Shown: positions 5,952 to 54,830 of the stretch, one piece after another
Numbering within the stretch: position 1 is the first letter of the stretch
How the letters are laid out: every line of letters begins with the position of its first letter
Source: Takakia lepidozioides
Lineage: Eukaryota > Plantae > Bryophyta
Reading direction: 5' to 3'
Assembly: GCA_030704615.1 (NCBI GenBank)
Contig: CM060734.1
Coordinates: 16,244,001-16,308,000, forward strand
Length of the DNA: 64,000 bases
Position numbers and translations under genes: made by a program
Notes under the pieces: generated by a model
What the model was told of the DNA's origin: nothing
Seen by the model: only the letters and a program-made list of their open reading frames with translations
The model's database searches: none

Positions 5952-6047
5952 AAGTTTGACTTCCAAACTTCTTCTTCACTTGACGGCCACTTTTATGACG
6001 TTAACCCGCGTCCACCTGTCACTGACCCAATACATTGTGTAACCCGC

Positions 6048-6267
6048 ATGGGCTGTGTTGGGCTGTGACAGGTTGTGTCTAACTTTGGTGAACTGTGATA
6101 GGCTGTGTGACACTGTGATGGGCTGTGATAAGTTGTGTCACGCTATGATGGGCTGTGATAGGCTGTGTCACGCTGTGATGGGCTGTGTGCACTGTGATTG
6201 GCTGTGATAGGCCGTGTCACGCTATGATAGGTTGTGATAAGCTGTGTCACGCTGTGATGGGCTGTGT
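6048..6267. repeat. GGCTGTGA-type 10-bp minisatellite
   Basis: Runs of (G)GGCTGTGAT(A/G) and GGCTGTGTCA. Confidence 0.85.
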
Positions 6268-6520
6268 CGTTTCATTTATAAATAAATAAATTACGGGCGA
6301 CCGCCAATATGGACAGTCGCTTCATTTATAAATAAATAAATTACCGGCGACCGCCAATATGGGCGGTCGCTTCATTTATAAATAAATAAATTACCGGCGA
6401 CCGCCAATACTGGCGGTCGCTTAATTTAACAAAATATTAAATTACAAGCGACCGCCAATATGGGCGGTCGCTTTTATTTAAAATAATAAATTATATGCAA
6501 CTGCCAATATAGGCGGACTC
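6268..6520. repeat. Second block of GCGACCGCC/GGCGGTCGC hairpin repeats (50-bp unit)
   Basis: TTCATTTATAAATAAATAAATTACCGGCGACCGCCAATATGGGCGGTCGC repeated about 4-5 times. Confidence 0.85.
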
Positions 6521-6736
6521 ATTTTTTTAGAAGAATTAATAAATATTAATAATTGGCCACGTCTGTTTTACACCATGGCTGCCATGTCATTACAAAGGGT
6601 AGAAGTAAATCGTAAAAGTCAAATGTATAAAAAATTACATGGATAAACGTCCGGATTCGACGTGACGTGACGTGACGCACGTTGGACATGACGGCCGACG
6701 TGTCAGCGCCACGTCACGTCATGAATGATAACTAGG

Positions 6737-8588
6737 CCTTAGATCTCTCCCCTCGTGGCTGATCTTTTTCCTGTACCAAATCCCTTAATCTTTCTTGTAA
6801 AGAATAAGAAGGAGTGACATCCAACTCTGGTTCCTCCAGTATGGATGATGTACTCTTCGATCTTAATGGTGTGAGAGGTCCAGATGATTCTCCTATGTCT
6901 ATTCCTCTCTCCCAAAGATATGGATAATTAGCTTTCAAATAACTTTATCTTTTTGCTGAATATCTGTGAAGTCTAGCTTCTCTTTCATCACTCATGTCCC
7001 ATGTCTTTCATATCTTCAATGAGGCAATAACCAAAACTCTCTTATGTAGTATCTCTCGTATATGCCTGGGTTTCTTTCAAGCTTCAATGCACCCTTGGCT
7101 ATACTAGAAGTCTTTGTTACCATATAACCATATGGCAAGCACGTCTGAAAAGTTGTTCTTGGTGTCAGTTTGATCCACATGATATCCTTAGGAATCCAAT
7201 TCTTTACTAGTACCAACTCTTCATGCATATGAGTGTAAACATTCACTTTCCGTTCCTCCTTGCCTTCAAACTCCACTCGTTTAATGGATAGCAATGCTAT
7301 CACATAAACCAGCGTTGGTAACCAACTTGCTCTCCCTCTACAGGCCATTTGATAAATCTTTATCACTCCTTTCTCCAGACCCCACTTAGGATCTGCATCA
7401 TGCACTCTCTTAAGAATGTTTTCTTTGCAACCATCTGGCAATTCCAAAAATCTCTGAAAGAATTGCTTGGACAACCTTTCTTTCTCAGTTCCACAAGGAA
7501 TTTGATTCACATCAAATTCTCTAATTCTCCAACCACCATGATCCCACTAGATGCCTGTCACATCTGGTTGTTCTTGACCCAGTTCCCCAGTATGGTCGCC
7601 AAATGTCGAGCGACTTTTACTCACCCATCCCTTCGCTATCCGAGGTGGGAACTCCAAGATAGAAGAGTTAGATATCTCTAAGCACTCAGCCCGCTCAGAA
7701 CAATCAGTCATGACCTACAGCTAGTGAATCATGGTTGTGCTTCTTGTTTGTATTTCTTCTTGCCTTCATGTTAGCAAATTACCTTACTGTGTATACTCAA
7801 GCATCAGATTGCTTCAGTATCTATCAAGTTCCATTCACTCATCTATTCATTCCACAGCTTCACTCAAGTCTCTCTACACAGTGTGATTGTATCGAATAAG
7901 TATGAGATTAAGATTTATCAGGTATCACGCCGAAGCAATGGTGTCTCTAATCTGCTCTACAGTATCACTACAGCTTTGCATATAACGAGCATCTACTGTT
8001 CATCTCTTCTCCTTCACCGTGCTCTCCACCTGTTCTCCTCCCGTGCATGTCCAAGAAGTGCTCCCTCTGAAGTGTCATCTATGATGCTTGCTCTGCCTAT
8101 TTTATCTACAAGCTGTTCTAACCGCCTAACTAACTAACTGTCACCTAAGAAGTAAACACGTTCCATCTGCAGATGTCCCACACAGTCGTTCCCTGCCAAT
8201 GATAACCGTTTCCTATATACGATGTGACGGGCTGTGCCAAACTGTGTCGGGTTGTGACTATACCGAGCTGTGACTGGCTGTATGAAACTGTGTCAAGCTG
8301 TGATAGATTGTGACTAACTGTGATAGGCTGTGATTAACTGTGACAGACTTTGTAAGGCTGTATTGGGCTGTGTAAGGCTGTGTATGGCTGTGATAGACTA
8401 TGATAGGCTGTATACGACTGTGTAAGACTGTGGCCGAGTGTGTAAGCCTATCTACCACCCCTAAAGCCTGTGCCTGTCACCCCTAAGGCCTCTGTTGATC
8501 TAAGTCTACCATCCGTACGTCTGCGCAAAAATTAAGGGTACCCCACAGAACCCATAAAAGTGTCTACGTCCCAGACAACCCTCTAACA
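6737..8588 (-). mobile_element. 5' part of non-chromovirus Ty3/Gypsy element (copy of 54468-56325), including the extra ORF
   Basis: Reverse complement of 54468-56325. Starts TGTTAGAGGG at 8588. ORFs 7016..7510 and 6732..6938 match 55351..56046 and 56067 onward. Confidence 0.9.
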
Positions 8589-16129: not shown

Positions 16130-18704
16130 GATGACTTCCTCTGAAGCGGAGTTCTTCTCTGACGACAACCAGTGCCGTTCTCCCAGGAAGTCCTTGACAA
16201 TGGATTTGCAATTGTTCTGGAACATGTCTTGGCTACCCGTTTTCAGCTTTAGAATGGCTCCATCTTTTTGGAGAAAGAGGTGTATGATTTGAAAGGGAAG
16301 TTGCTGAAATACTCTTTCCAAAACCGTGATGAGACGGCTCATGTCAGCCAGTGGAGAGTGCGTCCTGGTCGATACAGAGTACTTGGAGAGCCTCGGCGAA
16401 AGTCCCTTGGGTCATATGTGACGCCGGGACTGCTGCTTCGGTCGTTGAAGACAAGAGGGAGGTGGTGGTGAAAAAGAACAGACGTCCTCACTCCAATCGT
16501 TGAGCTTTCGGATTCGTCCGATGATGACATGAGTGAAACTCCAAATCCAGTCCTTCCTACTGTGGTTGGGAGAAGTTGATGAAGAAGAGATTTGTAGTGT
16601 CATTCCAAAACTACGGGCGATGGAGAGAATGGCTGGATTCAAAAGTGAGTTGCGAGGAATTGATTGGGAATCTTTGAAGCAGGTGCCTGTGAAGTTCTTG
16701 CCAGAGACTTTTGATGGCGATATCCTATTCGAGCTGCCTCCTCCTCCGCGAGTTTGGAGGTGTAACAATCATGATGCATGGAATGGACAAGAAACACGAC
16801 GGGCACCCGTGGTGCAGAACAAAAACATCCAATATTCAGAATGATGACAAGCTTGTTTTCAGGGAGAAACAGTTTGCAATGGACACCTTAGGTGTGATAA
16901 TTTGAATTGCAGACACTTTCTTCAGTCTGGGTCATAATCAAAGCGAATGGGAGGTCTGGCGGAAATCCATTTCAGCCTGGGACTGCCCCACCACCGGCAA
17001 ACACTTTCGTCTGCAAATCTGCAAACTTTGCCATCCTGCTTGGCGCTCTGCAGAGCAAGAATGTACTATGTTGTCCACCGTTTGAAAACAAATGACAAGA
17101 GCTTGTGTGCATTTCGGATTCCATAACCATCCTGTCTCGAAGGGGGATTGCAGGGAGAGTGTTGAGACAGTATTGAGGTTGATTAAACAAGAGTTCGGGA
17201 GAAACCCATCCGTAACAACATCTGCAATTGCTCTTGGCGCAAGCAAGTCCTTCTTGGAAAGCCATATTTTGAGTGAAGGGATTCTGTGGGGACTAAACTT
17301 GACGGTGTAGCATTGGACCTGGTCATGGATCATTTCTCCACTTTGAGTTCACCTAACATTCGGCATCAGATCAATGCATTAAGAATGGGCTCTGGTATCA
17401 GAAGCTACATAGACAACATTTTGGAGTTGAAACGAGTGAGCAAGTACGATTACATCCAGGACAATGTATTCCCAGGTCAAGGTGCCATCAAAGTTTTTTT
17501 TTTCAAAATGTCGACTGTTGGGGAGGGCAGTGGGGTTAGCCTCGTGAAGCAGATGCAGAAGACTGGGGACTTGCATAACTGTTTTCTTATGTTTGATCAT
17601 GTGAAACAAGTGAAGGATTGGACGACAATGGCTTGTCATGTCTACGATCCAGTGTACCAACGAGTTATGACAATTGCAGTTTGTGACATGCAATCCGAGG
17701 ATACAGAATCCCAGAAGCTCATGTGGAATTCCCTGATACGTGTCATGGGTTGCCATGGGCTGCCATCTCCAAATTTTGCAGGTTTCATGGCGGATAGTGC
17801 TCAAGCAAATTTCAATGCTGTTTGTATTGTCTTCGGATCGGGCGACCCAAAAGTGCCAATGCGAGGAAGAGAGCGTACATGTCTATTCCATTGGACACAA
17901 TCTCTGGAAAAACATACAAAGTCAGATATCAAACCAGAGATGCAGACTCAGCACCATAAATTGTGCAAAGAGTACAAAGATGCTAGAACATTGAAGGAGG
18001 CGGACACTTTGTTCAGACAATTCGTGCCTGGTGGTTCTCTTCTGGAGCTGCATCACTTGAGAGTATGAGAGCATTGGAAGATTGGCTGGCGTTTTGGCAC
18101 TTCCGTATAGACAGTGGGGAGCAGCCATGGCAGTGGTACGAGGCTTATATTTCTTGCTTTATTCATACATTTACTTTCCATTTTATTGTCTCATCACTTT
18201 CTTTATGTTGTTTTCTGTTCACTGTTTTGAAGTGTGGTTCTCCACTTTGCAAACATGTCCATTGAGGAAATGGCGGACATGCCATCTTGCAATTGGCAGA
18301 AACTGTGCACAACGCATGGTTGCAGCAGTCAGTCTGGGAAACGAGGTCGGGATTTGTATGTGGCAACAACAGATGATTTGATACGTGCCTTGCAACAACA
18401 AACCCGATACCGTGATTTCTTGCGAGGTGGGGTTGGTGGCAAGGGTCCGGACAATATTGCGTGCTGCAAAAGATCTGGGATCAATCAAGATAGCACGGGC
18501 GGTGAGCATGTATGCCAGGGAACGCACTTGTTTCTAGAGTTCCACATCTTGAAGGGGATGAGAGATTCGGCTCCTGTAAGAGGAAATGGAACACTCCACC
18601 TGGTTCGGATCCGATTCGCCACAGGGCAGACTGTGATAACTTCTCGAAGCCTCGTGTTTCCCTGCATGACAGCTCCATGTCCGGAACCTCCATTGTGGAA
18701 GAAC
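16130..18704 (+). pseudogene. Mutator-like (MULE) transposase with GCM-like Zn domain, N-terminal part; interrupted by the Gypsy insertion
   Basis: GMDKKHDGHPWC..CNGHLRC..HNHP (GCM/WRKY-like), FDH (D1), FMADSAQAN (D2), CLFHW (CxxH), AETVH (E). Removing 18705-30785 restores the frame IVEE-PPTRRQ. Confidence 0.8.
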
Positions 18705-19016
18705 TGTCAAGTTATTTTACCACTAGTGTGAAACTAGCTAGGAAATAGCTATCTTTTACATATTGACATTTGGGATTGGCCCAAGTGTCAATCCAGGGGT
18801 CAAGGCAGATTTAGGCCCTGGACGGCAAGCGCGGGAGGCTCATCTTTCTCGAGTTGAGCCTCACCGCGCCTAGCTATGGCGCCGTAGTGTGGATTCCCCA
18901 TGGCGTGGGGTGCACTTGGCTTGACTTGTATTTGAGTGATGAGGTTATATGCATGAGTTTATGCTTCAGCTTTGTGAGCTCGCATGAGCTCGTGCTTGTA
19001 TTCTTCTTCTTTATCA
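18705..19016 (+). repeat. Terminal repeat A1
   Basis: Matches 30266-30592 except for a 13-bp (GTGGTTATCTTCA) and a 2-bp indel. Confidence 0.92.
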
Positions 19017-20549
19017 CTCGAGAAAGATCAGCTCGTATCTATGAGTGCTAGATACGAGTTAGTTGTAGCACTTGTGGTTTTTGCTTGAGAATGAGAGAAA
19101 CCAAGTTGTTATGCAAGGAGCACCGTGGAGCTCTTGGTTGTTAGAAGCAGGAGGCGATGTGGGTTACGAGGTGGTAAACCTTGGCATTCGATCTTCAGCT
19201 TCAGAGATGAAAGCACCATACTGTAGGTAATTCCAGAGCACCTTGATGGTTTCAGATTGTGTACATGCATGAGCAAGCACGATTGGGAAGAGGACCAGTC
19301 AAGAGCAGGTTATAGTGGCTTTGGTGGCAAAGCTGAGAACTGGACTTGGGAATGCGAGCTGTCATTGTGTGAAGGATTGCAAGACCAAGCGAAAGGGCTG
19401 ATTTGGCTTGGGGCAAATCAGTGCACTTTGTGGAGTATGGTGAGATTGGGTTTCAATCTCGAGCTTCAGCATTGAGAGGCTCTTGTCATGGCAAGAGCAG
19501 GGCTGGAACAGGAGCTAAGAGGTGCGGCAAGGCCATGGAATGTGCACCTAGGGTTTCAGAGCTTGGAAGAAGAGCTCTTGCACCACAAGAGAAGTGTCTT
19601 GTGGCTGGAAATGTAAGCCTTAGGGTTTCAGGAGCTTGGCAAAGGCTATGGAGTGCTTAGTCTTGTCTTAGAGAGCATCAAGGAGCCAAGGAGCCAAGAT
19701 AGGGGCTGATATCTCTTGTGTGAAGAGGTTGCATGTGTGGAGCATGTATTCAACTCATTGAAGCTTCCATCTTCAAGCTTGGAGGGCAAGCAAGGAAGAG
19801 TGGGAAGGGCTAACTTCCCTTATGTGAGGGCAATGCATGTGTGGAGCATGCTATCAGCCTGGTGAAGGCTTGCACTTTTAGGTGTGGGAGTGCAAGGAAT
19901 GAAGGAAGGGGCTGGTTTCCCTGTAGGGCATGTAGAGCATGCTTTCAGCCTGCTGAAGCTTGTATTTTCAGGTTGTGGGTGCAAGAAATGAAGCAAAGGA
20001 GCTGATTCTCTTATGGTGAGAGTGGGGCATGTGTGGAGCATGCCTTCAGCCCATTGAGGCTCTTGTTTTCAAGCCTTAGAGAGCTAGAACGGAAGGTCTA
20101 GGGCTGGTTTCCACTTGGAGTGAAAGAACAGCACTTGTAGGGCCTATGTGAGTTGGGGTTTCAACTTCAAGCTTGAAGGGAGCGCAACTCTTGAAGCAAC
20201 AGGTGTAGAGGGCTGGAATAGCTCTAAGACAGATGCTATGGCCAATGAGGGGAGTGCTTGAATGAGTGCTCACAAGGGCTGGGAACCAGCAGGGCTTGGT
20301 TGTTTGCCATTGAGTTTAGTGGCGTGTTTGGGGAGGCTAAGTGAGAGAAGGCTTGGTTTGTGGCAACCACCTCATGGCTTAGGGCTACTATGGTGGTGTG
20401 TGGGAGCCGAAAGAGCAAGGATACCTTGCTGATTTCCTCACAGCCACCATAGCTCGGTGGAAAGAAGCCTAGAGTCCAAGAGACACAAACCCTAGCTTGG
20501 CGTGGCTAAAACCCCTTGGAGAAATGGCTAACTGCCAGAGCGGCCATGT

Positions 20550-21795
20550 GTGGGGCTGTGACAGGCTGTGGCAAGCTGTGACGGGCTTGCTGTGGCAAGC
20601 TGTGACAGGCTGTGCCATGTGATGGCTGTCAGCTGTGACGGGCTGTGCCCAGTGGCTTTGGGCTGTGACGGGCTGTGCGGGGCTGTGACGGGCTGTGCCC
20701 TGAGGCCTGTGGGGCTGTGATGGGCTGTGACAGGCTGTGCCCAGTGGCCTGTGGGGCTGTGACGGGCTGTGAGGGCCCTGTGGCTGTGTGGGCTGTGATG
20801 GGCTGTGACAGGCTGTGCCCTGTGCCCTGTGGGGCTGTGACGGGCTGTGACAGGCTGTGCCTGAGGCCTTGGGGCTGTGACGGGCTGTGAGGGGCTGTGA
20901 CATGCTGTGCCCTGTGCCTGTGGGGCTGTGACGGGCTGTGTCAGGCTGTGCGAGCTGTGACGGGCTGTGCGGGGGCTGTGACAGGCTGTGCCCTGAGGCC
21001 TATGGGCTGTGACGGGGCTGTGACAGGCTGTGGCGAGCTGTGACAGGCTGTGCCCATGGCCTTTGGGGCTGTGACGGGCTGTGAGGGGCTGTGACAGGCC
21101 GTGCCTGAGGCCTTGAGGCTGTGACGGGCTGTGAGGGGCTGTGACAGGCCGTGCCCATGGCCTTTGGGGCTGTGACGGGCTGTGAGGGGCTGTGACAGGC
21201 CGTGCCTGGGGCCTTTGGGGCTGTGAGGGGCTGTGAGGGGCTGTGACAGGCCGTGCCATGGCCTTTGGGGCTGTGACGGGCTGTGAGGGGCTGTGACAGG
21301 CCGTGCCTGAGGCCTTTGAGGCTGTGAGGGGCTGTGAGGGGCTGTGACAGGCCGTGCCCTAGGCCTTTGAGGCTGTGACGGGCTGTGATGGGCTGTGGCA
21401 AGCTGTGACAGGCTGTGATGGGCTGTGATGGGCTGTGACAGGCTGTGCCCTGTGCCCTGTGAGGCTGTGAGGGGCTGTGACAGGCCGTGCCCATGGCCTT
21501 TGGGGCTATGTGGGATGTGAGGGGCTGTGACAGGCCGTGCCCATGGCCTTTGGGGCTGTGAGGGGCTGTGAGGGGCTGTGACAGGCCGTGCCTGAGGCCT
21601 TTGGGGCTGTGACGGGCTGTGAGGGGCTGTGACAGGCCGTGCCTGAGGCCTTTGAGGCTGTGAGGGGCTGTGAGGGGTGTGACAGGCCGTGCCTGAGGCC
21701 TTTGAGGCTGTGACGGCTGTGAGGGGCTGTGACAGGCTGTGCCCAGTGGCCTGTGGGACTGTGACGGCTGTGACCAGTGAGCTGTGTGGGCTGTG
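20550..21795. repeat. GGCTGTGA minisatellite (10-bp unit, ~50-bp higher-order unit) in the element's long 5' leader
   Basis: About 1.25 kb of GGCTGTGAC/GGGCTGTGAG with recurring GGCCTTTGGGGCTGTGAC. Confidence 0.92.
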
Positions 21796-22512
21796 CTGGT
21801 CTGTGGTGGCCCGTGTTGACCTGTGGACGGCTTGTGCTGACTCGTGGAGGCACTGGTGGACTGCCTAAGGACTGGCATGTGGTCTGGAAGGCCGAATTTT
21901 GAAGCTCGTGGAGGGCGGTTTGAGGAGTATCTTCATGATATTCCCATGGTCATGCAAGTGAGGATAGAGAGGAGAGGCAGAGTGTTGGGATGAGAGCATG
22001 CTGGGGTTAGGCATTGCTTTAGCTTCTCTTCCTCGTAGTTTCCACCCTCTCATTAGGCCAAGACCTTTCCGTAGGTGGAGGCAAGAGTCAGTCCGGGTTT
22101 GGGCTGGGGTGTCCTTGCAGGAGCAACACCGTGGAGTTGTTTTTGGTGTGGGGGAGTTGTGTCGTTCTGATTTCTTGTGTTTGGATCCCCTCCATACCTG
22201 CATGCTTGACTGTGCGCCATGCTAGTTTTGTGTGGGCGCTTGTTTTTATAGGTGATTGGTCCGGATTTGATCACCGGCCAGTCCTAGAGCATGCTGTCGA
22301 TGGTGAGGCTGGGGTGATGACCAGCCAGACCATCATTGTTTCTCCTGTGGTGAGGTTGGAGGTGATGACCAGCCAACCATAGGAGTGCTTGTGGTGGATG
22401 CAGGTACAGGTGTAGGCTATGTTAGGAACTTAGTATTCCAAACCATAAGCCGCAACAGGTTCTCTACCCGGTTACCTTGTGAAGAGGGGGTTAGGGACAT
22501 GTTCATGACCGG

Positions 22513-25070
22513 TTGAGTGTCAACACGGAGGTGCCACTAGTTGCTGGGGACAGTGCCGGTTCGAGCACTAGCGATACTAGTGGGTACACGAGACGAGGTG
22601 TGCGGTTTAGGCCACCTTCACCTCCTGTGTCTTCCACGGAAGTTTCTGATTCGGATTGTGAATCAGGAGGGCTCATACCGGCGGTGCAAGTTGTTTCTTT
22701 GCCATTGTTGTGGGACACAATGGAGGAGATGTATGGAGCTACCAAGGGGCCACGAAGGTACTCTGGGGCGGTGGGCACCATCGAGTTGGATGATTTTATC
22801 CAAGAGTTTGATAGTTGGTGTGATTTGCAGCAAATGCGCAATCCACAACTATTTACGCCTTTCATGGCATGGAAGGGGCTGTTTCAGCACCTTGAGGGGC
22901 CGCCTATGGATGATTACCATGAGTTCAGGCGGGGGCATGAGGTTGAGATCGAGGAGTGGAGGATGTACTGGTCACCCGACTATGTCTCCATCACTAGGGG
23001 CACTAGAGCCACGAGGGCAGTGGCTACACCTGCCGCTGCACCGGCAGCTTCAGCAAGTAGCAGTGGGACTGGTGGTACAGTAGCTACGACATCCACCCAA
23101 GCCACTACCGCACCAGCACTAGCACCCGTGCCTGCCTTCAACCCTGTTGTGGAGTTCTTCGAAGAGTTGAGAGGGAACTACCAAGGGGTGAGGACAGAGA
23201 AGTTGCGGAGCTTGCAAGAGTTCCAACGGAAGCCGACCGAGAGCTTGAGAGAGGCTTTCACTCGCATGAGGCGCTTGATAAATGTAACCCAAGGGGTTAC
23301 GGAAGCTCAGGCAGTCCAATTCTGGTATGGGATATTGGACAAGGAGCTGAGGAGAAGGGTGCGGGATGCAACTCTCCTACAAGCGGCCCAACCCACCTTA
23401 GCAAATGTGTTTTTGCTGGCAGAGCGGATAGAGCTCAACATGGTGGAGGAACGAGTGGTCATGGTGGGATTTGCTAAGGAGACACCACGGGGTAGTGGTG
23501 CTCCTAGCCAACCACTACCTCAACGTGCTCAAGGCAACAAGGGGGCTCAGGTGAAGCTCAGGGAAGGGCAGAGAGGACCTCAGATGCAGGGGTCTCTCCC
23601 TTCATTTGCTGGCCAACAACGGGCGGATGTGGTGTGCTGGACATGTGGAGGACCCCATGTCAAGAAGATTGTCCAGAGGGAGGCAAAGGGTCGGCACATG
23701 CACAGCCTGCACAGTTACAGTGTGGGCATTGTGGCAAACACGGGCATGGAGAGGCTCAGTGTTATGGTTTGCATCCTGAGTTGCGCCCAGGCCAGTTCCA
23801 AGGGAACAATGGTGGCCGGGGGCGAGGTGGAGCAGCCCAGAGAGGACGAGGTGGCCAGCCACGAGGTGCAGGCCAAGGGCAAGCTCAACGTGGCCAAGGA
23901 CGCGGAGGTCAGGGTGTTGACCAAGGCATGGCCAACCGCTTCAGCAGCTAGAGCAGAGGCTCGCTGCCATGGCTACAGCTCAGGTGGTACCGGCTCTAAG
24001 GCCGGATGGTCCACCTCCTGCTCCTGAGGGAGGAGATATGGGAGGCATGGGATTCATGTGTGGAGCAGCACTACCACTAGTGCAGGTGGAGTCTGCTGCA
24101 GCCGTGACTCGAGGAGCAGCACGAGTTCCTGAGCCACGAGGTGCAGAGGTGGAGTTGGATCCACAGCGTGGGGAGGCAAGCCGTCAGGCTAGGCTTCCTC
24201 AGTCATTCACATTGGCGGAGACAGTGTCGACGCCATCCATGGCACCTAGTTCTCGCCCGACTGTTACCGAGGCGGAGGTCACTATGCCATTGGGGAGAGC
24301 TACACGGGTAGCACCACTACCTAGTGTTGCCAAGGCTACGGCAGCTAGTGTGCTGCTAGGAGCGGCCACATCTGTGTGCCAGGCTCCATTGTTCTCGGCT
24401 ACCATGATTGCGACGCCGGGGGTAAGACCAGCTGAGGTGTTCAGGCTGGCAGCTACACTCTGTGAGAGTGGGGAGGTTACTTCATCTTCTGCGGAGATAG
24501 TGGGAGGTGTAGTGCCGGAGGGATCCTCGGATTTGAGGGTCAAGACTGCCACGGCGGCGCCATGGCAAGCTGCAGCTGCCAGGTTGATGGAGCTGCCAGC
24601 TAGGCCAGCCATTGAGCGCGCCATGGTGACACCTGGAGTTGTCATGTTAGACAACCAGGATGGCATTTTCTGTTTGAGTGGACCGGCAGGCAAGAGGTAC
24701 CGGCCACTGCGAGTCTTGTTGGACTCGGGAGCTCAGCCACTGATGCTGGGCAGAGCTGCTATTGCAGGCTTGGGCCTCACGGAGGCGGATATGGAGCCTT
24801 GTCCTTTCCAGATACAGACGTCTCTGGGAGGATCGGAGCAGGCTCGGGGCATGACACGGCATGAGTTGGCTATCAGACTACGGCCGGATCACCCTACAGA
24901 TGGCTCAGTGATGCGAGCCAAGGCCATTGTGACAGACGCAGTCTCATACGATGTCCTGGTTGGTGGGGCAGTGTTGTACCCCATGGGCTTCACCCTGGAT
25001 TTTGGGAGGAGTCAGCTTCCTATAGGCCTGCATGGCAGTCAGGGGAGGGCCGGCGTGTGCAGCTCCCTGT
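22513..25070 (+). CDS. gag: Gag (two Zn knuckles) and aspartic protease, frameshifted
   Basis: Retrotrans-gag-like FQRKPTESLREAFTRM. CWTCGGPHVKKDC and CGHCGKHGHGEAQC knuckles. VLLDSGA and YDVLVG protease motifs. Three single-base frameshifts (~23665, ~23945, ~25003). Confidence 0.85.
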
Positions 25071-25429
25071 GACGTTCATAGGAGGAGTTGCGGTTGCCCA
25101 GCGAGGCAAGATGCCGACACTAGCAGCATTCACAGCGGCAGTGAATTGGCCTAGAGAGTTGCTTGAGGGCAATGCTCATTCAGAGGATGTACCACCTTCG
25201 GGAGAGCAGGATGACATGTATGGTATGGCGGAGTTGCCTACCATGGTTGCTCAGACTCCATTGTGGGGCACGAGCAAGGATTTGCAGCGGGATGCTGATC
25301 GACGGGTGCAACAAGCCTGGGTGGAGGCTTTTGTACCGTCAGGAGAGGAGGAGAGTGTGGGGATTGCACCAGGACCACCTCAATTGTCTCCATTGGACAC
25401 CACACCTATTGTGTGGCAGTCTCCGGATG

Positions 25430-26400
25430 AAGGCATTTGTCTTCTGGACTTGTTTGGCGGGATCAGCACCGGATTGGCTGCTGTGTTACAGGCAGGTGTA
25501 CGAGTTCGGCGTTACCTGTATGTGGAGAGGGATGAGACTGCACGACGCGTTTCACTTCGCCATGTTGCTCAGTTGGTGCAGCGGTACCCTGAGTTGTTGT
25601 CGGTGTCTGCAATTCGTGGATATCAGCAGGCCTTGCCAGCAGACATTTCGTTGCTGGGGGCGCAGGATTTGGAGCGGGTTGGCTCCATTGATCTGGTAGT
25701 GGCAGGTTGGCCCTGCCAAGGGCATTCATCAGCCGGGCATGGCAATGGATTGCGAGACTCGAGGTCGGGTCTGTTTTGGGAGATGGTGCGGGTTTTGCGC
25801 CACTTGCAGCTTCATCAAGCTGTATCTCCAGCATACATCTTGGAGAATGTGCCACTGATGGGCAATTCTCGGGCCAGGGTGATGGCCAGTGTGCATCAAG
25901 TCCGGTCGTGGCTTGGGTCAGCAGTGTTGCTAGATGCAGCTACAGTGGGGTCACGGGCTCATCGTCCACGGCTATGGTGGACTAACATGATGCCACCCGC
26001 ACTGCTCAAGCGTGCATTTGATGGGGTGCAGCGGCCAGCACATCTCACAGTGGATAACATTCTGGACACAGGGAGGCAGTCTCAACGTGTGAGACACGAT
26101 GACCGTTCGCCTTTGGCAGTGGTCAACAAGGTGGGTCAACCACGAGCAGCATTACCTACACTGCTCAGCTTCCCAGGATCGCATGCTTTCCGGGATAGTG
26201 GACCTGGCCTCCTGTGGGATGCTCAGTTGCAGCAGTTAGTGGAGCCTAATGCTGACGAGCGTGAGCGGGCAATGGGTTTTACCACTGGTACCACGGCGGT
26301 GTCGTCTCTTTCTGAGGCATCACGTCGTCAAGTGTTGGGGCAAGCAATGGATCTCAATTGCTTGACCTGGATTATCAGCTTGGCTCTAGCTGAGCAACGC
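25430..26400 (+). CDS. C5 cytosine DNA methyltransferase domain (DNMT3-like) within pol (ORF 25057..26613)
   Basis: Motif I LDLFGGI, II YVERD, III ADI, IV AGWPCQGHS, V SGLFWE, VI YILENV, VIII AHRPRLWWTN, IX ERERAMGF, X RRQVLGQAMD, all in one open frame. Confidence 0.95.
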
Positions 26401-26840
26401 AGAGTGCGGAATACACTTCCCTCAATGGTCTCTCTGCCTACCGAGACGGTACAGGCAGTGAGTGGGGGCGAGCATGTGAGGACCACGGGGTGCATGCATC
26501 CATGGCACACGTGGGAGGTGCTCGAGGTTCAGAGAGAGTTGGCAGCCAAGGCGGCTGTGATGGATGAGGTTGGGGATTCTTCTCAGTTGAGGAGGTCCTC
26601 AAGGATGAGATGATGGGGCAGGATGATGCCTTGTCATTGACTGAGCAGGTAGGGAGTACTGCTCAAGAGGTTGCAGCATAGCAACCACGGGACGCGTCCT
26701 CTACCTCTAAGCCCACTGGACTTAAGGTTGTAGTTACGGAGGACAATTGGGAGCCTGACATTGGACCCATTGTCACCGGAGGAGAGAGACGACGTATACG
26801 GCGGTTCCTGAGGGCTTACAGGAATTGCTTTGCCTTCAGT

Positions 26841-29816
26841 TTGAAGGACTTGGGAGCACTGAAGGGTCAAGAGATCCGTATTGAGTTGGCCACTGACACG
26901 CCAATCTTTCGGAGACCCTATAGATACAGTGACATGGAGAGGTCTTTGATTCAGATGAGGACTCAAGATCTCTGGGAGGCAGGTTTGGTGGAGCTCTCTG
27001 GTGGAGAGTATGCTTCAGCCACAGTGATGCCAGCCAAGAAGGATGTCTATGGCAATTGGACGGAGAGACGTATGTGCGGTGATTACCGGCCTGTAAATCG
27101 TCAGACCAAGTCCGATAAGTATGCCATGCCAACACCAGAGGAGATCTTTGATGCCATCGGGCATGCTAAGGCCTTTAGCACTTTGGATTTACGATCCGGA
27201 TATCACCAGTTGCCAATCAAGGAGGCGGACAAGCAGAAGACGGCATTCTGGGGGATCAATGAGCACGGCAAGGATTGCCTATATCAGTGGCGGTTCTTAC
27301 CATTTGGGCTTAAGAATGCTCCTGCAGAGTTTCAGAGAGTCATGGATAGGATTCTAGCAGGGGTGGACTTTGCTCGGTGCTACATAGATGACATCATCAT
27401 CTTTAGTGTTACGATGGAGGAGCATGAGAGACACCTTCAGGTGGTATTGGAGCGCTTGAGAGCGCACGGATTGAAGTTGCATCCGGGGAAGTGCAAGTTT
27501 TTCCACAACCAGATTGAGTATCTGGGTCACATGATATATCCTGGAGGATTGGGGGTACAGCAGACTAAGGTAGAGGCCATTGCACAAATTCCACGCCCCA
27601 CGGATGTGAGCCGAGTTCGAGCTTTCATGGGGTTGGCAAACTATTATAGACGGTTTGTCAAGGGATTTAGTACCATTGCAAAGGCTCTAACCAAGCTGAC
27701 CAAGGTGGACCAGGAGTGGCAGTGGGAAGATGAGCAGGAACGAGCTTTTCAAGAGCTCAAGGCGAGGTTGACCTCGGCGCCTATCTTGAGACGACCTATC
27801 AGGGGGCGTCCCTTTCAGCTGCATACGGATTGGAGCATGCTGGGGCTTGGAGCGGTGCTCACACAGGTGGATGATGAGGGAAGAGAGTTCGTAGTGGCTT
27901 ACGCTAGCCGCTCGAACAACGCTGCAGAGGCTAAGTACAGCTCATATGAGGGAGAGTGCTTAGCTGCAGTGTGGGCCGTGGCACACTTCAGGTGCTATCT
28001 ATACGGCAATCTTTTCACCCTTGTCACGGATCACCAGCCACTCAAGTGGTTGATGGAGTCAGACAAGCTTACAGGGAAGCTTGCACGGTGGGCACTTATA
28101 CTCCAGGAGTATGACTTTCAGGTTGTGCATCGACCGGGTTTGGTCAATCGGGATGCGGATGGATTGAGTCGCAATCCATGCATGAGCCAGCAGGATGACA
28201 CTGGAGCTCGGTGGCATGGTGAGACGGACGAGGAGATGGTGCCGGGATGGCACGCATCTGCATTTTTGTGTATCTTGGCATCGGGAGGTCAGATTGGACC
28301 TACAACAGGGATGACTGTAGACGGAGTGTCTGAGGACCCTGAGGCTAGTGATGAGCTAGGTGGTGCCAGAGATATACATGAGGATTCGGCTGTGTTGGAC
28401 TACCTCCGCACGGGAGACACGGCAGCCATTGTGACTGCCAGGGAGAGGGATCGGATCCTGCAACGAGCCAAGAGGTTCAAGTGGGAGGGGATACACCTAC
28501 TTCGAGTGTGGGAGGATGGTCGGGTGAGGATTGTGCCTCACCCCACACAGCGTGCACGGTTAGTGCGGCATGCCCATGAGGAGTTGGGGCATTTTGGAGT
28601 GCGACGCACTCACAGTTTACTGCAGGGGCAGTATTGGTGGCGTGGTATGCATACAGAGGTGCAACAGTTTGTGGCTAGGTGCATGGTGTGTGACAGGGTG
28701 CGTGCTTCATTCAACGCCCCTACACCACAGTTGCATCCTTTACCTATCATGGGATTGGGCTACAGGTGGAGTCTTGACTTCGCAGGACCGTTGCCACTGA
28801 CTATGCGCCACCACAGATATGTGTTGGTGATGGTGGAGCACTTCTCCAAGTGGATTGAGTTGGTTCCATTGCCTGACAAGGCTAGTGAGGGGGCTGCGTA
28901 TGCATTCTTGGATCGTGTGCTTAGCCGATTTGGTGCTCCAGCTGAGGTACTCACGGACCAAGGGAGAGAGTTCTTGGGGGAGTTTCAGGCTTTGTGTGAT
29001 AAAGCCTTGATAGACCACCGCACCACTTCTCGGGATCATCCTGAGGCCGATGGCTTAGCAGAGAGAGTTGTTCAGACGGTGAAGAGGGGTTTGCGCAAGT
29101 ATGGCTTGCAGAAGGGACACCTAGGAGATTGGGATCTTCAGGTTCCTTGGTTAGCCATGGGCTACAGGTTCAGCAAACAAGCATCACTTGCCTCCTTCTC
29201 ACCATATTTCCTTCTCTTTGGCCGAGAGCCGGATTTGCCTGCAGCCATTCGTAGGGACACTGCTCAAGTCCTTAACCTTGACGATCCGGACGTGTGGGTA
29301 CGTGCATGTGATCAGCGTGCAGAGTTGTTCAAGAAAGTCATGCCCATGGCTTTTGAGAACCTTGCCATTGCACAGCACCGTGATACGTTGAGGTATGCCA
29401 CTATACGTGGTGGAGGATATCGTCCTGGGGTTCGGAGGTTTAGCCCTGGTGACTATGTTTATTTGCAGCAGACTGCTCCTACGACTCTGGATGTTACTGC
29501 AGGGCGTGTTATTCTGAGGGTTCGAGAGGTGTTGCCCTCAGGGGTCCTGATCTTAGAGGGTCGGGATGGCATGACTTGGAAAGACCATGTGCGTAATTGT
29601 GCGCCATGTCACCTTCCCAATGTCGATGGCAGAGTTGACCCAAACTTGGCAGTGGTACCTGCAGGTTTGAGGTGCATGCTCTGTGGGTCTGCCAAAGGGG
29701 CAGCCACCATGCTGGTGTGTGATCGGTGCTCAAGGGGTTGGCATATGGGATGCTTGACACCACCTCTTGAGAAGGTGCCTGACGGAGATTGGTTGTGTCC
29801 ACACTGCTTGGGATAG
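26841..29816 (+). CDS. pol: Reverse transcriptase, RNase H, integrase and C-terminal PHD finger
   Basis: RT LDLRSGYHQ, LPFGL, YIDD. RH TDWS, ECLA, TDH, DADGLSR. INT H-H-C-C, DFAG, TDQG, AER. PHD C4HC3 CMLC..CDRC..H..C..WLCPHC. 991 aa open. Confidence 0.95.
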   Translation: MKDLGALKGQEIRIELATDTPIFRRPYRYSDMERSLIQMRTQDLWEAGLVELSGGEYASATVMPAKKDVYGNWTERRMCGDYRPVNRQTKSDKYAMPTPEEIFDAIGHAKAFSTLDLRSGYHQLPIKEADKQKTAFWGINEHGKDCLYQWRFLPFGLKNAPAEFQRVMDRILAGVDFARCYIDDIIIFSVTMEEHERHLQVVLERLRAHGLKLHPGKCKFFHNQIEYLGHMIYPGGLGVQQTKVEAIAQIPRPTDVSRVRAFMGLANYYRRFVKGFSTIAKALTKLTKVDQEWQWEDEQERAFQELKARLTSAPILRRPIRGRPFQLHTDWSMLGLGAVLTQVDDEGREFVVAYASRSNNAAEAKYSSYEGECLAAVWAVAHFRCYLYGNLFTLVTDHQPLKWLMESDKLTGKLARWALILQEYDFQVVHRPGLVNRDADGLSRNPCMSQQDDTGARWHGETDEEMVPGWHASAFLCILASGGQIGPTTGMTVDGVSEDPEASDELGGARDIHEDSAVLDYLRTGDTAAIVTARERDRILQRAKRFKWEGIHLLRVWEDGRVRIVPHPTQRARLVRHAHEELGHFGVRRTHSLLQGQYWWRGMHTEVQQFVARCMVCDRVRASFNAPTPQLHPLPIMGLGYRWSLDFAGPLPLTMRHHRYVLVMVEHFSKWIELVPLPDKASEGAAYAFLDRVLSRFGAPAEVLTDQGREFLGEFQALCDKALIDHRTTSRDHPEADGLAERVVQTVKRGLRKYGLQKGHLGDWDLQVPWLAMGYRFSKQASLASFSPYFLLFGREPDLPAAIRRDTAQVLNLDDPDVWVRACDQRAELFKKVMPMAFENLAIAQHRDTLRYATIRGGGYRPGVRRFSPGDYVYLQQTAPTTLDVTAGRVILRVREVLPSGVLILEGRDGMTWKDHVRNCAPCHLPNVDGRVDPNLAVVPAGLRCMLCGSAKGAATMLVCDRCSRGWHMGCLTPPLEKVPDGDWLCPHCLG

Positions 29817-30060
29817 TGGCAGTGGACATGACTGGAGGCAGCTAACAAGACATGGGAGGCCAAGCTCATAGGAGTCAATACATAAGATCCCAAGCTCAAG
29901 TTCACGGTTGCAAGACGGCGACTAACGATGGGGCAACTCTTGCACCCGGCCTCTTGATCTATCGAGTTTGAGTGTAGTAGGGATAGTGGTGGAGGACTTA
30001 GTGAGGCTATGGTCACTATCACATCTTGTGGCTACCTGGACTTAGAGGGACCTAAGCACC

Positions 30061-30074
30061 AGCTAGGGGGGCGA
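30061..30074 (+). promoter_or_regulatory. Polypurine-tract-like site upstream of repeat B1
   Basis: AGCTAGGGGGGCGA immediately before B1. The same sequence precedes B1' in the second copy (32327-32340, minus). Confidence 0.7.
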
Positions 30075-30781
30075 TTGTGTGGACTAGTGACTGCCATAGT
30101 GGGCAGCGTAGTGGCAGCCTAGTGACTGACTAGTTGTAGCCTAGTGGTTGGACTAGTGGCTGGACTAGTGGTAGACTAGTGGTATACTAGTGTGTGGTGT
30201 GCACATGTGTTGTGTGGTTTTGGACAGCGATGTAGTTGTGTAGCGATATGTATGCGCACGACAGCTGTCAAGTTATTTTACCACTAGTGTGAAACTAGCT
30301 AGGAAATAGCTATCTTTTACATATTGACATTTGGGATTGGCCCAAGTGTCAATCCAGGGGTCAAGGCAGATTTAGGCCCTGGAGTGGTTATCTTCACGGC
30401 AAGCGCGGGAGGCTCATCTTTCTCGAGTTGAGCCTCACCGCGCCTAGCTATGGCGCCGTAGTGTGGATTCCCCATGGCGTGGGGTGCACTTGGCTTGACT
30501 TGTATTTGAGTGATGAGGTTATATATGCATGAGTTTATGCTTCAGCTTTGTGAGCTCGCATGAGCTCGTGCTTGTATTCTTCTTCTTTATCATTGTGTGG
30601 ACTAGTGACTGCCATAGTGGGCAGCGTAGTGGCAGCCTAGTGACTGACTAGTTGTAGCCTAGTGGTTGGACTAGTGGCTGGACTAGTGGTAGACTAGTGG
30701 TATACTAGTGTGTGGTGTGCACATGTGTTGTGTGGTTTTGGACAGCGATGTAGTTGTGTAGCGATATGTATGCGCACGACA
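30075..30781 (+). repeat. 3' terminal B1 (30075-30263)-GC-A2 (30266-30592)-B2 (30593-30781)
   Basis: B1 equals B2 (189 bp, no differences seen). The junction GACAGCTGTC is a perfect palindrome. Confidence 0.92.
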
Positions 30782-30785
30782 GAAC

Positions 30786-31794: not shown

Positions 31795-32999
31795 TGTCGT
31801 GCGCATACATATCGCTACACAACTACATCGCTGTCCAAACCACACCACACATATATGCACAATAAAGTAGTCTGCCACAATGGATAAGAAAACTAGATAA
31901 ACACACTGTTTACACAAGAAAACAACATGAATCCAACAGCATCACTCTTTAAGATAATAGTTGAGCCAGGGGCACCCCAAGCTATGGGGACTCCACCCCA
32001 CAACAACCTACACTCTCATCATAAGCACACTCAGATCTGAAGCGATGAAGGAGCTCGGTCGCGCAGGCTCAACTCGAGAGAGATGAGCTGCGCGACTGCC
32101 GCTCTCGTGAAGATAAGACGGACCAGGTGTCAAACTAAACTTGACACCTGATTTAACACTTGACCTAAATCCAAGTGTTAAATACAAATAACTAGTTTTA
32201 TTCTAGCTGTTTTCACACTGTGCTTATTTAACTTGACAGCTGTCATGCGCATACATATCGCTACACAACTACATCGCTGTCCAAACCACACCACACATAT
32301 ATGCACAATAAAGTAGTCTGCCACAATCGCCCCCCTAGCTGGTGGATAGGTCCCTCTACCTCCAGATAGCTACAAGATGTAATAGCCACAGCCGTACTAA
32401 GTCCTCTATCACTGTCCCTATTGTACTCAAACTCTATAGACCAAGAGGCCGGGTACAAGAGTAGCCCCATCGTTAGTCGTCGTCTTGCAATCTGTGAACT
32501 TGAGCCAGGATCTCGTGTGTTCAAGGTCTCCTAGTAGCTGGGCCTTGCGTTTCTTGTTAGCCTTCCATGGTTGTATCCACTCCCACTATCCAATGCAATG
32601 TGGACATAACCAATCCCCATCTGGAACCATCTCAAGAGGTGGAGTCAAGCATCCCATATGCCAACCTCTAGAGCATCGATCACACACCAGCATGGTGGCT
32701 GCCCCTTTAGCAGACCCACACAACATGCACCTCAAACCTGCAGATACCACTGCCAGGTTTGGGTCAATCCTGCCATCGACATTCGGAAGGTGACATGGCG
32801 CACAATTACGCACATGGTCCTTCCAAGTTATGCCATCCCGACCCTCCAAGACCAAGACGCCTGAGGGCAAGACCTCTCGAACCCTCAAAATAACACGTCC
32901 TGCAGTCACATCCAGGGTCATAGGAGCAGTCTGCTGCAGATAGACATAGTCACCAGGGTTGAATCTCCGAACCCCAGGACGATAGCCCCCACCACGTAT
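31795..32999 (-). mobile_element. 3' end of a second, diverged member of the PHD/split-repeat Gypsy family
   Basis: Integrase C-terminus and PHD (32586-32999) near-identical in protein to 29400-29816. B1' 32241-32326, GC, A2' 31881-32238, B2' 31795-31880. Junction TGACAGCTGTCA. Confidence 0.9.
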
Positions 33000-35022
33000 T
33001 GTCGCGGCCCATTGCCTTGAGGGCAGGGGGTCAGGACACATGAGGGGCTGCCCCTGTGGTGGGGGCAGCGGCAGCGATAGGTATGGGGGGCTGAAGCACC
33101 CTTGAGTGCCCAAGGCACTCAGGGAAGCGAAGGCGCTCACTAGGTGGAGCCCCGCACACCGGGTTGCGGTGGGGGTGGCTCCATAAGGGGTGGTGGTAGC
33201 TTAGCGGGACTTAGTGGGGGTGGCATAGGACTCACCATGGGAGCGGAGACCTCGTGGTGGGAGTCGTGGGGAGTCTTGGGACTCATCGCGGTCCATAGGG
33301 GCCGTGGTGAGCGGGCCAAGACTCACCGCGACTCATCACCGGGAGTCGAGGGTTTTCGTGGTGGTTCGCCATAAAATGGCATGGCTGGTTGTGAAACCCC
33401 CGCGGACACCTACAGAAGTATATATAGGGAGTAGTAACCCCGAGAACGGTGCAAGCCCGTTGGTGACCAAAAACTAGTGAGTAAGCGAGCGAGCCGGAAA
33501 GCGACCAAAGAGTGGGGAGCTGTTCCGGACTGCCATCTACCAAAGGGAATTCTCCTAGTCCCAAATAGGTGGAGGGTTTAGTGGGAAGCGAAGGGGGACC
33601 GTTATGTCCCGGTGAGCAGCCGAAGCTCCAAGTTGGCCCGGGCGGCCAGGTTGGGAGTCAGGTGCGCGCATCAAAGCGAGTAACTATGACTTGAAGGGGA
33701 GCTTACCAAAGTGAGGTGCGCGACACTTGGTATCAGAGCTTAGAGTTTAGTACGCGATTGTCCTTGGGATTGGCCTCATCATGGGGTCGGGCAAGCCGAA
33801 GCGAAAGCGGAACGGCCCAAAAGATGATGATCCCGGTGAGCCCGATGGGGGCGGCGTGTCACCGAGGCGGCCGTTTGAGGAAGCGATGCATGTTTCCAAA
33901 AACGAGGCCGCCCAAGAGCGGGAGGAATCCGAGGAGTCGGAGCCCGAGGAATCCTTGAGAGCTCCGACAAACCAAGAGATGCCTCCCATGCCGGCAGCCT
34001 TGTGGGAAGGGTTGTTGGCGCAGTTTGGCGGGACGTTGAAAGACGTGTTGAAGGCGGCTAATGCCACTTCCGCTAAGGCAAAGTTTAAGGTGAAGCCTAA
34101 GGAACCCGGCACCTTCGAGGGCGTCCGAAATCGGAAGGCACTCAACACCTGGCTCCTGGAGCTAGAGCAGTACTTCCGGGCGGCCAAGTTGAGTGACGAG
34201 GATCGGGTGGAAGTGGCTCCCACCTATTTGAGGGGCTATGCTCAACAATGGTGGCAGAAACGCCTTCATGACCGAGGCCCAAGCCCGGAAACCTTGAACT
34301 GGAGTGGGTTCAAGGAATTGATGAAGAGACAATTTGTGCCCTCAACGCGTCCTGGCTCGCCCGGGACAAGATGAGGAATTTGAAGCAAACAGATGACATT
34401 CGGGGATATGTCCAGGCTTTCAATGTGATGTTGCTCGAAGTTGCGGACATGGCAGAACCAGAAATGGTCTTCAACTTTGTGGCGGGACTGGCCCCATGGG
34501 CCAGGTGGAAGTTGGAGGAGAAGCCACCCAAGACTTTGAACGAGGCTATTGAGAGGGCTGAATGTTTCTCAGATGTCCCTAGGGGTGAAAGACAAGGCCG
34601 TACGGAGCTGAACCACAAGAAAATTCGGCGGGAAGGTGACTCCTTCCGACCGGAAAAGAAGTGGGATAGGCCACGTGGCAAAAATGGCACGTGGAAATCG
34701 AAGGGAGGGCCTTCACACGTCAAGGCGGCACCCGGTGCTTCGAAAGGAAAAGCGGGTGGAGCGGCTTATGGCGGACAGAAGGCGACCTTTGATGGAGTGT
34801 GTTTCAATTGCGGGGAGCCCGGGCACATGGCCAAGAAGTGCACGAAGCCCCGACAATTGAACATGACTCGAGCGACCACGGAGCTGTCGGAAGATACCAT
34901 CAGTCGCTTGGTGGAAGCGGTGGTCGCCAGGACTTGCAAGGTAGGCAAATTTTCTTGTGAGTTGTATCAGGAAACTGGCGCCTTACGAAAAGGGAGTCAG
35001 TTATTGTTCGTGGATGGGATAA
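33000..35022 (+). mobile_element. Chromovirus Gypsy 5' LTR (33000-33725), PBS-Met and gag; 3'-truncated
   Basis: TGTCGCG...CGCGACA LTR. TGGTATCAGAGC at 33728-33739. Gag ORFs 33781..34374 and 34371 onward, with CFNCGEPGHMAKKC. Confidence 0.92.
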
Positions 35023-35205
35023 AACATTGCCGAACCTCCTTCATCGGGAGGTCCTTCTCCCCCTATGACCGTGAAACCCTAAACCCTATTCCCGCGGACA
35101 CTCATTTCCGGAAAATAGTCCCGCTCATGTTTTTTTCGACACTTACGACTCTGCTCATGGCTCATGCCGCTCATGGCTCATGGTTCATGAAATAGCAGCC
35201 CCCCT
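35023..35205. mobile_element. Terminus of a MULE-like element (similar to 52600-52850)
   Basis: GCTCATG repeats ending CATGAAATAGCAGCCCCC, versus CATGGAATAGCAACCCCC at 52833-52850. Confidence 0.5.
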
Positions 35206-35209
35206 CCCT

Positions 35210-35770
35210 AGATGCTCCTGAGGTACATGTCTGCATCACAGAATGTAACCCGGATAAAGACATCCTACACATCTCCCCCATTTTACGTCTTGGCAAACGT
35301 CTGTCCAAGCTATATGCCCCCCAAGGTCGCTATATGGGACTCATCCCGAATGACCGACTCACTTGGCTCTGGCACAGATATTCTACTTCAAGCCCACCAT
35401 CCAGCCAGCTCACGCCAGATAGGCAAGACTTTGCCATAGAAGTCTGCTGGCTCGTAGACCGCTATCTGATTGATACCCCTCCCAAAAAACCTCGCTCCAC
35501 CCTCAAGCTCACACAAGCCTAGTCTCTTACTACCCTCCCCCCAGACGTTCTTGCACTCCTTATAGATTCCTTCCAAATCACGCACTCTTACTACTCGAGC
35601 CCACTTACTGCCCCATGCTCCTCTCATCATACTCCAGCTCGCACCCCGCGACTGCCTATTTGGAGCCACTGGCTCTGCCTCCCAACACACCTGGGCCGGC
35701 CGCGGTTATGCACACCCGCCCCCAGGCTCTTCCACGCATGACGCTTTGCAATGGGCCCACCTCGCGGCTC
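35210..35770 (+). pseudogene. Dualen/RandI-like LINE, post-RT region with PCIF1-like methyltransferase remnant
   Basis: ECNPDKDI, RLTWLW. Frameshift-corrected SPLT..YSSSHPRDCLFGATGSA..WAGRGYAHPP. Confidence 0.55.
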
Positions 35771-54589: not shown

Positions 54590-54830
54590 TTACACAATCA
54601 GTCACAGCTTGACACAACTTGTCACAGTCTGACACAGCCTTATACAGCTTGTCGCAGTCTGACACAGCCTTACACAGCTTGTCACAACTTGTCACAGCCT
54701 TACACAGCCTATCACAGTCTATCACAGCCCGACACAGCCCGACACAGCCCGACACAGTCAACCACAGTCCAACACAGCTTCACACAGCCAGTCACAGCAT
54801 TCACAGTTTGACACAGCCTGTCACAGCATT
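54590..54830. repeat. TCACAGCC/ACACAGCC 10-bp minisatellite within the element's 5' end (also at 8222-8450)
   Basis: Reverse complement of the GGCTGTG(A/T) motif. Confidence 0.8.

Follow-up and report, generated by a model that had tools for sequence, protein, structure and literature searches.

Organization and coding content of the element

The window, which is the whole 64,000-nt stretch of DNA analysed here, contains a retrotransposon with the layout A1-internal-B1-A2-B2 on its forward strand (positions 18705-30781). It is a Ty3/gypsy-type element with reverse transcriptase (RT), RNase H (RH), integrase and a PHD finger, together with a C5 methylase and split repeats. The termini are TGTC and GACA, and the element is flanked by the 4-bp target-site duplication (TSD) GAAC. 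The coding region is split into four open reading frames (ORFs), the methylase frame being separate from pol (Table 1). Repeat A1 is shorter than A2, with 13 nt missing after 18821 and a further 2 nt missing elsewhere. The outer ends of the element correspond to the halves of the palindromic B/A junction without its central 2 nt. At the A2/B2 junction, A runs into B through a single A common to both, and this puts the primer-binding site (PBS) at 19016 or 19017. A methylase match was present in 33 of 73 related loci, and the upstream DNA is missing from many of the rest.

The second-subfamily copy at 31795-33005 carries the primer sequence at 32072-32084, inside a hairpin at about 32061-32094, and its 5' end is outside the window. 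The region at 33000-43450 contains two related ordinary Ty3/gypsy elements in opposite orientations (gag, protease, RT, integrase and SH3_Tf2-1 matches), one of which cuts into the second-subfamily copy at about 33005. A tandem array of the GGCTGTGAC type, with a 10-bp unit, occupies the 5' internal region of the main element (20450-21950), and arrays akin to it were seen in other repeats of the window (6050-6280, 8250-8450 and 54580-54800). Palindromic GCGACCGCC..GGCGGTCGC units are arrayed at 2747-6540, with a spacing of 50-53 nt.

Table 1. Coordinates of the features of the element and of the neighbouring second-subfamily copy, in window positions
Feature	Position	Strand	Remarks
Left TSD GAAC	18701..18704	+	Empty-site contigs from runs X5 and X12 show GAAC once
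Repeat A1	18705..19016	+	Begins TGTC; the last A is also the first base of the PBS and of B
Hairpin	18829..18869	+	Predicted to need transcription of the upstream arm, as in the 3' copy or read-through RNA
Candidate self-primer	18842..18854	+	Predicted transcript 5' end, C/A at 18841/18842
U5-like arm	18934..18944	+	Pairs with 19009-19019; in folding, a competitor for PBS bases 1-4
Primer-binding site (PBS, predicted)	19016..19028	+	Complement of 18842-18854; reaches 19032 with the majority G at 19029
Stem-loop just 3' of the PBS	19032..19058	+	A19041G and T19049C both common
gag-like ORF	22495..24027	+	Position and CxxC motif only; no Pfam match
ORF with DSG protease-like motif	23921..25072	+	No Pfam match
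C5 cytosine DNA methylase ORF	24865..26613	+	PF00145, E 5.9e-13
pol: RT, RNase H, integrase (H2C2 and rve), PHD finger	26682..29816	+	Domain matches
Polypurine tract (PPT), directly 5' of B1	30065..30073	+	G-run at the equivalent place in relatives
Repeat B1	30074..30263	+	Ends GACA
Palindromic B/A junction GACA-GC-TGTC	30260..30269	+	Conserved in relatives
Repeat A2	30266..30592	+	Second primer-sequence copy at 30416-30428
Repeat B2	30593..30781	+	Identical to B1
Right TSD GAAC	30782..30785	+	Flanks the B2 end
Second-subfamily copy, 3' end	31795..33005	-	End of pol with PHD, PPT, B-A-B

Complementarity between repeat A and the primer-binding site

The original prediction described a 13-nt segment at the end of A1 as the exact reverse complement of a segment within the same repeat, and this was confirmed for 19016-19028 and 18842-18854. 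The hairpin surrounding the partner segment exists as well, with folding energies of -30.3 kcal/mol in the A2 copy and -27.1 kcal/mol in the second-subfamily copy, and the stem-loop just downstream of the PBS was present as claimed. No TGG was found after A1, in agreement with the claim that a TGG-type PBS is lacking. The 13-mer had been equated with the hairpin loop; a 12-nt loop was found, but the first base of the 13-mer, A18842, sits in the stem. The second copy in the window had been put forward as a diverged one that keeps the loop and a compensated stem. It does retain the 12-nt loop, with one change, and its stem is altered; however, its PBS is outside the window, and covariation between loop and PBS is invisible there.

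The chance expectation of such a 13-mer in a composition-matched A is 8.7e-6, and none of 1000 dinucleotide shuffles of A gave a 12/12 match. With up to one mismatch, the motif occurs four times in the whole window against 0.15 expected, and each of the four is the PBS or a copy of its partner. The majority allele at 19029 is G (depth 6526/8921 in run X1 and 362/633 in run X5, counted in aligned contigs); with it, the duplex grows to 17 bp and enters the hairpin's 5' arm. Among the rows listed for four runs (contig-depth counts), no substitution was recorded at 18845-18854 or 19016-19028. An Rfam search of 18600-19300 returned no matches.

A contig of run X2 connects the B start with the primer-hairpin region (31881-32064) and skips 182 nt. 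This contig could represent either a deletion variant or a PBS-like complement adjoining B.

Covariation across families

Relatives were collected by contig scans, which gave 73 loci in metagenome contigs and 6 more in genome contigs. Seven families were distinguished, each represented by its best copy: the window family 1, subfamily 2, and families C, D, F, F2 and G. Their pol identity to the window is about 70-76% for C, 43-48% for D, 68-69% for F and F2, and 51% for G, with 46-76% spanned by the representatives of C to G. Families F, F2 and G, which were detected by a complement scan, derive from the 3' ends of collapsed contigs; for F and G, the A end lacks an independent definition. Family E and loci L022, L023, L031, L037, L019, L068 and L077-L079 are without a scorable 5' end. 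Locus L076 has a 12-nt pair in a shifted register with an undefined A end, and it was excluded from the family count. In 30 loci, the DNA upstream of pol was also scanned de novo for complements; this yielded numerous A/T-rich chance pairs and, taken alone, no further family. A search of viral contigs by DNA pattern, pol and alignment gave nothing usable.

Covariation, named at the outset as a check on the pairing, was observed: all seven family representatives pair at 12/12 positions with Watson-Crick pairs, in a register fixed at the last base of A. Each family has a PBS sequence of its own, these differ at up to 9 of the 12 positions, and all 112 pairwise PBS differences over the 12 positions are compensated. 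More than one pair type occurs at 10/12 duplex positions across the seven families. The uninterrupted complement is 12 to 18 nt long depending on the family (15-18 bp in several), with 4e-5 to 4e-4 chance matches expected per family. The pairing score is 12 within a family (11 for L001), 7-10 between families and 11 between subfamilies 1 and 2. The end of the helix is always 0-3 nt from the A/B junction that marks the cDNA end.

The subfamily-2 row of this set is a single 162-nt contig, record 2 of run X12, a run of contigs guessed to be RNA, and is known by its alignments. It carries subfamily-2 A sequence and, 47 nt past it, an 18-nt perfect match to 32072-32089 in reverse; a new stem-loop comes next. 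The change predicted for the PBS of the second subfamily is borne out, in this one contig, as C-G in place of the U-A of family 1. The new stem-loop is an analogue, in different letters, of the one that follows the PBS in the window; families C, D and F showed no stem-loop of this form. Within families, D shows C-G versus U-A, and L017 and L074 differ by two changes.

Copy by copy, 15 rows representing 12 distinct insertions were scored, with 12/12 pairs in five and 11/12 in two. The remaining five distinct copies, all of the old family C, reach only 9-10, which is at the level of shuffles (39-590 of 1000), and deletions extend across the primer in four of them. All five family-C A2 copies are full length over the primer, one with a substitution. 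Differing deletions of the primer hairpin were seen in 4/8 distinct family-C 5' A copies (L005, L007, L034/L035 and L048) versus 0/5 3' A copies, numbers too few for significance.

The U5-like arm at 18934-18944 is a degenerate second copy of the primer sequence. A similar arm is present at 9905-9915 of L016, and similar ones occur in D and F. Its pairing across the end of A with the start of the PBS is possibly a switch or a U5-IR-like stem.

Loci L017, L067 and L074 are collapsed contigs with the order PPT-B-A-PBS, and L074 has a terminal overlap of 127 nt. This is likely repeat collapse, although the sequence would equal that of a one-LTR circle. Loci L074-L079 are eukaryotic retrotransposon contigs placed in prokaryote genome bins.

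Position of the partner relative to the transcript start

Self-priming had originally been proposed to occur by pairing of the hairpin loop with the PBS. Independence from tRNA is well supported by the 7/7 covariation; however, the loop-PBS geometry is not supported. Around the partner, 6/7 families have a hairpin that includes an upstream arm; family D lacks it. In C, F, F2 and G, most of the partner is stem-paired (9-11 of 12-13 bases; 11/12 in L038, 9/13 in L017 and L074, and 10/13 in L067), and in families 1 and 2 the complement continues into the stem arm.

The spacing of TATA-like boxes also bears on the geometry. Twelve rows of families C, D and F were examined; the partner was located in 11 of these, and 10 of the 11 have such a box at -29 to -33, counted from the pyrimidine/A at which the partner begins. 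In C, D and F, the predicted RNA 5' end would accordingly coincide with the partner, and the 5' arm of the hairpin would be left untranscribed. On these sequence grounds, the partner is probably the transcript 5' end. No canonical TATA box is present at that place in families 1, 2, F2 and G; families 1 and 2 instead share a common TTATCTTCACG motif at -28 and -32. The 13-nt deletion in window A1 (at 18821, compared with A2 30384-30396) removes a TTATCTTC motif common to subfamily 2 at the TATA position, and it was not found in other aligned copies. With this motif lost from A1, the promoter of this copy may be impaired.

Folding with an RNA that starts at the partner gave P of about 1 for 9/13 pairs in the window, and nearly the full duplex in L038, L028 and L001. 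When 45 nt of upstream sequence were added, the duplex fell to about 0 in the window, L017, L009, L074 and L067, and persisted in L038, L028 and L001. For families 1 and 2, the P of 0 obtained with the full hairpin does not amount to a test, as ViennaRNA cannot represent kissing loops. At the 3' end of the primer, four pairs have a P of only 0.01-0.02 in the window, being outcompeted by the U5 pairings, and forcing these four priming-end pairs costs 3.6 kcal/mol (3.0 in L017). Help from a protein or branch migration must therefore be assumed. The side helices of the Tf1 "pretzel" were not above shuffles in 11/12 tests (one at 7/300), in a crude comparison with fixed 15-nt windows. The palindrome CTCGAG of the loop was considered as a dimer signal and rejected as not general, as it is absent from C, F, F2 and G.

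Proposed priming mechanism and alternatives

The reading that we favour, at a probability of roughly 0.75, is self-priming of the Tf1 type, in which 18842-18854 would be the 5' end of the RNA and would prime on the complementary PBS. The complement, its fixed register and its covariation are observed; the start site, the cleavage by RNase H and the use of the primer in cis are inferred. Transcription would start at A18842 or a few bases before it, and the first 11-13 bases of the RNA would fold back onto the PBS. RNase H would cut within the duplex and yield a 3'-OH, the strong-stop DNA would jump to A2, and the G-rich tract would prime the plus strand through B1-A2, the real LTR being B+A. 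The hairpin would not itself serve for priming; its formation would be confined to the 3' copy and to RNAs initiated upstream, in which it is likely to hide the spare copy of the primer.

Copying of the primer back into the PBS by the plus strand would make primer and PBS change together, which matches the observed covariation. The A/B junction retains 0 or 1 paired bases in families 1 and C, and 3 in 4/5 family-D junctions; with the predicted +1 of each as the first base, this suggests a primer length of 11-13 nt. The primer of Tf1 is about 11 nt long. According to the title of a reference on Tf1, the Tf1 primer is not removed; were this true of the present elements, each cycle would rewrite the PBS from the primer, and the covariation would be enforced.

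A kissing interaction is a quite unlikely variant, in which the RNA would contain the whole hairpin, the loop would pair with the PBS, perhaps with strand invasion to 17-18 bp, and a cut would produce the primer. The hairpin and the 12-nt loop are retained in subfamilies 1 and 2 despite the changed stem, the complement there runs on into the 5' arm, the loop contains CTCGAG, and in these two families neither a TATA box fixes the start nor does the folding result with the full hairpin count as a test. However, the stem position of the partner in C, F, F2 and G, the lack of an upstream-arm hairpin in D, and the TATA spacing in C, D and F, which leaves the 5' arm outside the transcript, all argue against this geometry. 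Furthermore, the complement in L074 ends exactly at C/A, though the upstream letters are the same as in L017, and X12 contigs of diverged copies show several lower-stem changes. A primer of the same sequence acting in trans, whether a short transcript (capped or abortive), a second packaged RNA with its 5' end or a fragment cut out of the A2 hairpin, is unlikely. It would account for the register and the covariation equally well, and it is consistent with the long complements (15-18 bp) and with the hairpin that flanks the partner in 6/7 families; but the cut position relative to that hairpin is not common across families, the hairpin is missing in D, and most of the duplex is already formed by intramolecular folding.

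It is more improbable still that the pairing is purely structural, as a closing helix of the 5' UTR or a packaging or dimer signal, with priming by a tRNA half or another host RNA. The window and the 73 loci offer no tRNA genes for comparison, and plant copia lineages use half-tRNA priming according to PMC6317226; the use reported in that source is, however, for Ty1/copia only. The seven PBS sequences, up to 9/12 positions apart, each match their own repeat, the helix ends within 0-3 nt of the A/B junction at which the cDNA ends, no other PBS-like site follows A1, and 18600-19300 is without an Rfam match. A tRNA primer is likewise very unlikely to judge from the PBS sequences, as it would require seven different RNAs, each happening to match its own repeat. 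No PBS begins with TGG in any of the seven families, and no tRNA genes were found in the window or the 73 related loci.

Split repeats and integration

As the PBS follows A and the PPT precedes B, the functional LTR is probably B+A. The insertions nevertheless end at the B/A palindrome, which is conserved in relatives down to 42% pol identity. Exact 4-bp duplications flank 4/6 complete related elements, and all six have the arrangement A-internal-B. Among the distinct 3' ends, 19 stop after B1 and 13 have B-A-B in our own tally. Three of about 13 A/B junctions deviate: L021 has filler and two PPT-side bases, and L020 and L075 have 1-2 bases fewer.

These junction patterns fit end-joining followed by integrase cleavage at the palindrome. 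We tentatively propose circle integration as the main route, a reading with slightly less than even odds, in which the linear cDNA primed by the RNA 5' end (LTR B+A) would have its ends joined, and a DDE integrase would open the internal palindrome, in a green-plant and algal lineage apart from Tf1/sushi. The joined A/B junction would sometimes retain PBS- or PPT-side bases or filler; one-LTR circles would give A-internal-B, and two-LTR circles would give A-internal-B-A-B. Against this model, A-internal-B can alternatively be obtained by recombination between B1 and B2. Furthermore, a B before A1, as predicted by symmetric cutting, was present in 0/9 distinct 5' ends, a count possibly biased by short-read assembly.

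Family E includes solo A-B units that lack internal sequence, in L042 (591-903, minus strand) and L016 (1287-1687). Such units are expected from A1-A2 recombination or from cutting at both palindromes of a circle.

If true, the circle route would give a DIRS-like layout without a recombinase. With the positions of the PBS and PPT fixed, the LTR would be redefined as B+A, and the integrase would act at a palindrome inside the LTR, not at the ends of the cDNA. This bears on the old retrovirology question of circles as true integration precursors, and on the regeneration of split direct repeats, those of DIRS-type elements included.

Comparison with known systems

Liverworts supply the closest named relatives of pol (77-79% across a portion of the protein), followed by Closterium and Klebsormidium. 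In a quick tree of 38 rows, calculated with SH-aLRT support, no bootstrap, and F2 (L074), subfamily 2 and named Tf1/Tcn1 references left out, the window RT falls in a 29-row clade with Klebsormidium and Closterium proteins (SH-aLRT 97), and the families are on separate branches of that clade. Two Klebsormidium proteins named "putative retrotransposon protein" join the same clade.

An element of this architecture, KnitGypsy-Dnmt3 of Klebsormidium nitens, is described in PMC5890265 (de Mendoza et al. 2018) as having Gypsy domains, a Dnmt3-like methylase and DIRS-like repeats. The window element resembles it in the order RT-RH-integrase with a C5 methylase (here a Pfam C5 match only) and in the A-coding-B-A-B repeats. 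Unlike that description, a PBS, a PPT, a TSD and a palindromic B/A junction are defined here, and the methylase frame is separate in this copy. The main text of PMC5890265 contains no mention of "primer binding", "PBS", "priming" or "circular". These terms are also lacking from the text of its three supplementary files, which is possibly incomplete, as "KnitGypsy" itself gave no hits there. The part of 10.64898/2026.05.21.726589 that bears on the Gypsy-Dnmt3 group merely names it. Our literature searches, with most subscription papers and Repbase reports outside their scope, returned no description of priming in Gypsy-Dnmt3 elements. The mechanism and the architecture are thus each known, and the link between both was not found in print. 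The present analysis offers a probable primer, hitherto missing, for a published type of retrotransposon that is without a mechanistic explanation, and it adds, with unusually clean covariation, a probable self-priming lineage outside the chromoviruses. These elements would escape LTR finders that demand a tRNA site and equal terminal repeats.

Self-priming from the 5' end of the RNA is described for Tf1 in PMC5341516, PMC4600332 and 10.1101/2022.12.06.519325, the last of which also describes side helices (a three-duplex "pretzel" at the PBS), and the Tf1 cDNA ends are covered in PMC11042837. In the survey of plant LTR elements in PMC6317226, self-priming is predicted for 12%, in the Tcn1 and TAR lineages, and for SM-Tcn1 neither kind of PBS is reported in PMC2864245. 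The elements studied here share with Tf1/Tf2 of Schizosaccharomyces pombe, Tj1, Tosmo1-3 and the Tf1/sushi group, including the moss and club-moss Tcn1 clade, the lack of a tRNA site. They also resemble the Tf1/sushi group in a PBS directly after the 5' repeat that complements a segment inside the repeat, at the predicted RNA 5' end, and in a partner downstream of a TATA box (here in C, D and F only). In contrast to the Tf1/sushi-Tcn1 elements, they have a PHD finger and no chromodomain match, a C5 methylase, and a split A/B in place of two equal LTRs. Compared with Tf1 itself, the pretzel side helices are not above shuffles here, and an upstream-arm hairpin is present at the partner in 6/7 families.

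The A-coding region-B-A-B layout is shared with Ngaro, PAT and SymbioDIRS. Those elements have a tyrosine recombinase, whereas here there are a DDE integrase, a 4-bp TSD, TG..CA ends, and a PBS and PPT at LTR-type positions. Membership in the DIRS order was rejected on the rve and H2C2 matches, the lack of a recombinase match in the four ORFs of the element and the 4-bp TSD. Troyka, which has CG..CG ends, a 3-bp TSD, animal hosts and ordinary LTRs according to PMC12440569, was also considered and rejected, the ends here being TGTC..GACA with a 4-bp TSD.

The integrases of HIV-1 and foamy virus are reported to cleave palindromic junctions of 2-LTR circles (PMC1905944, PMC1180852 and PMC4372172), and a palindromic CA-NN-TG junction is proposed as the integrase substrate here as well. 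In HIV-1 and foamy virus, however, the palindrome consists of ligated cDNA ends and belongs to a side path, whereas here it is a fixed site within the repeat, at which every mapped insertion ends.
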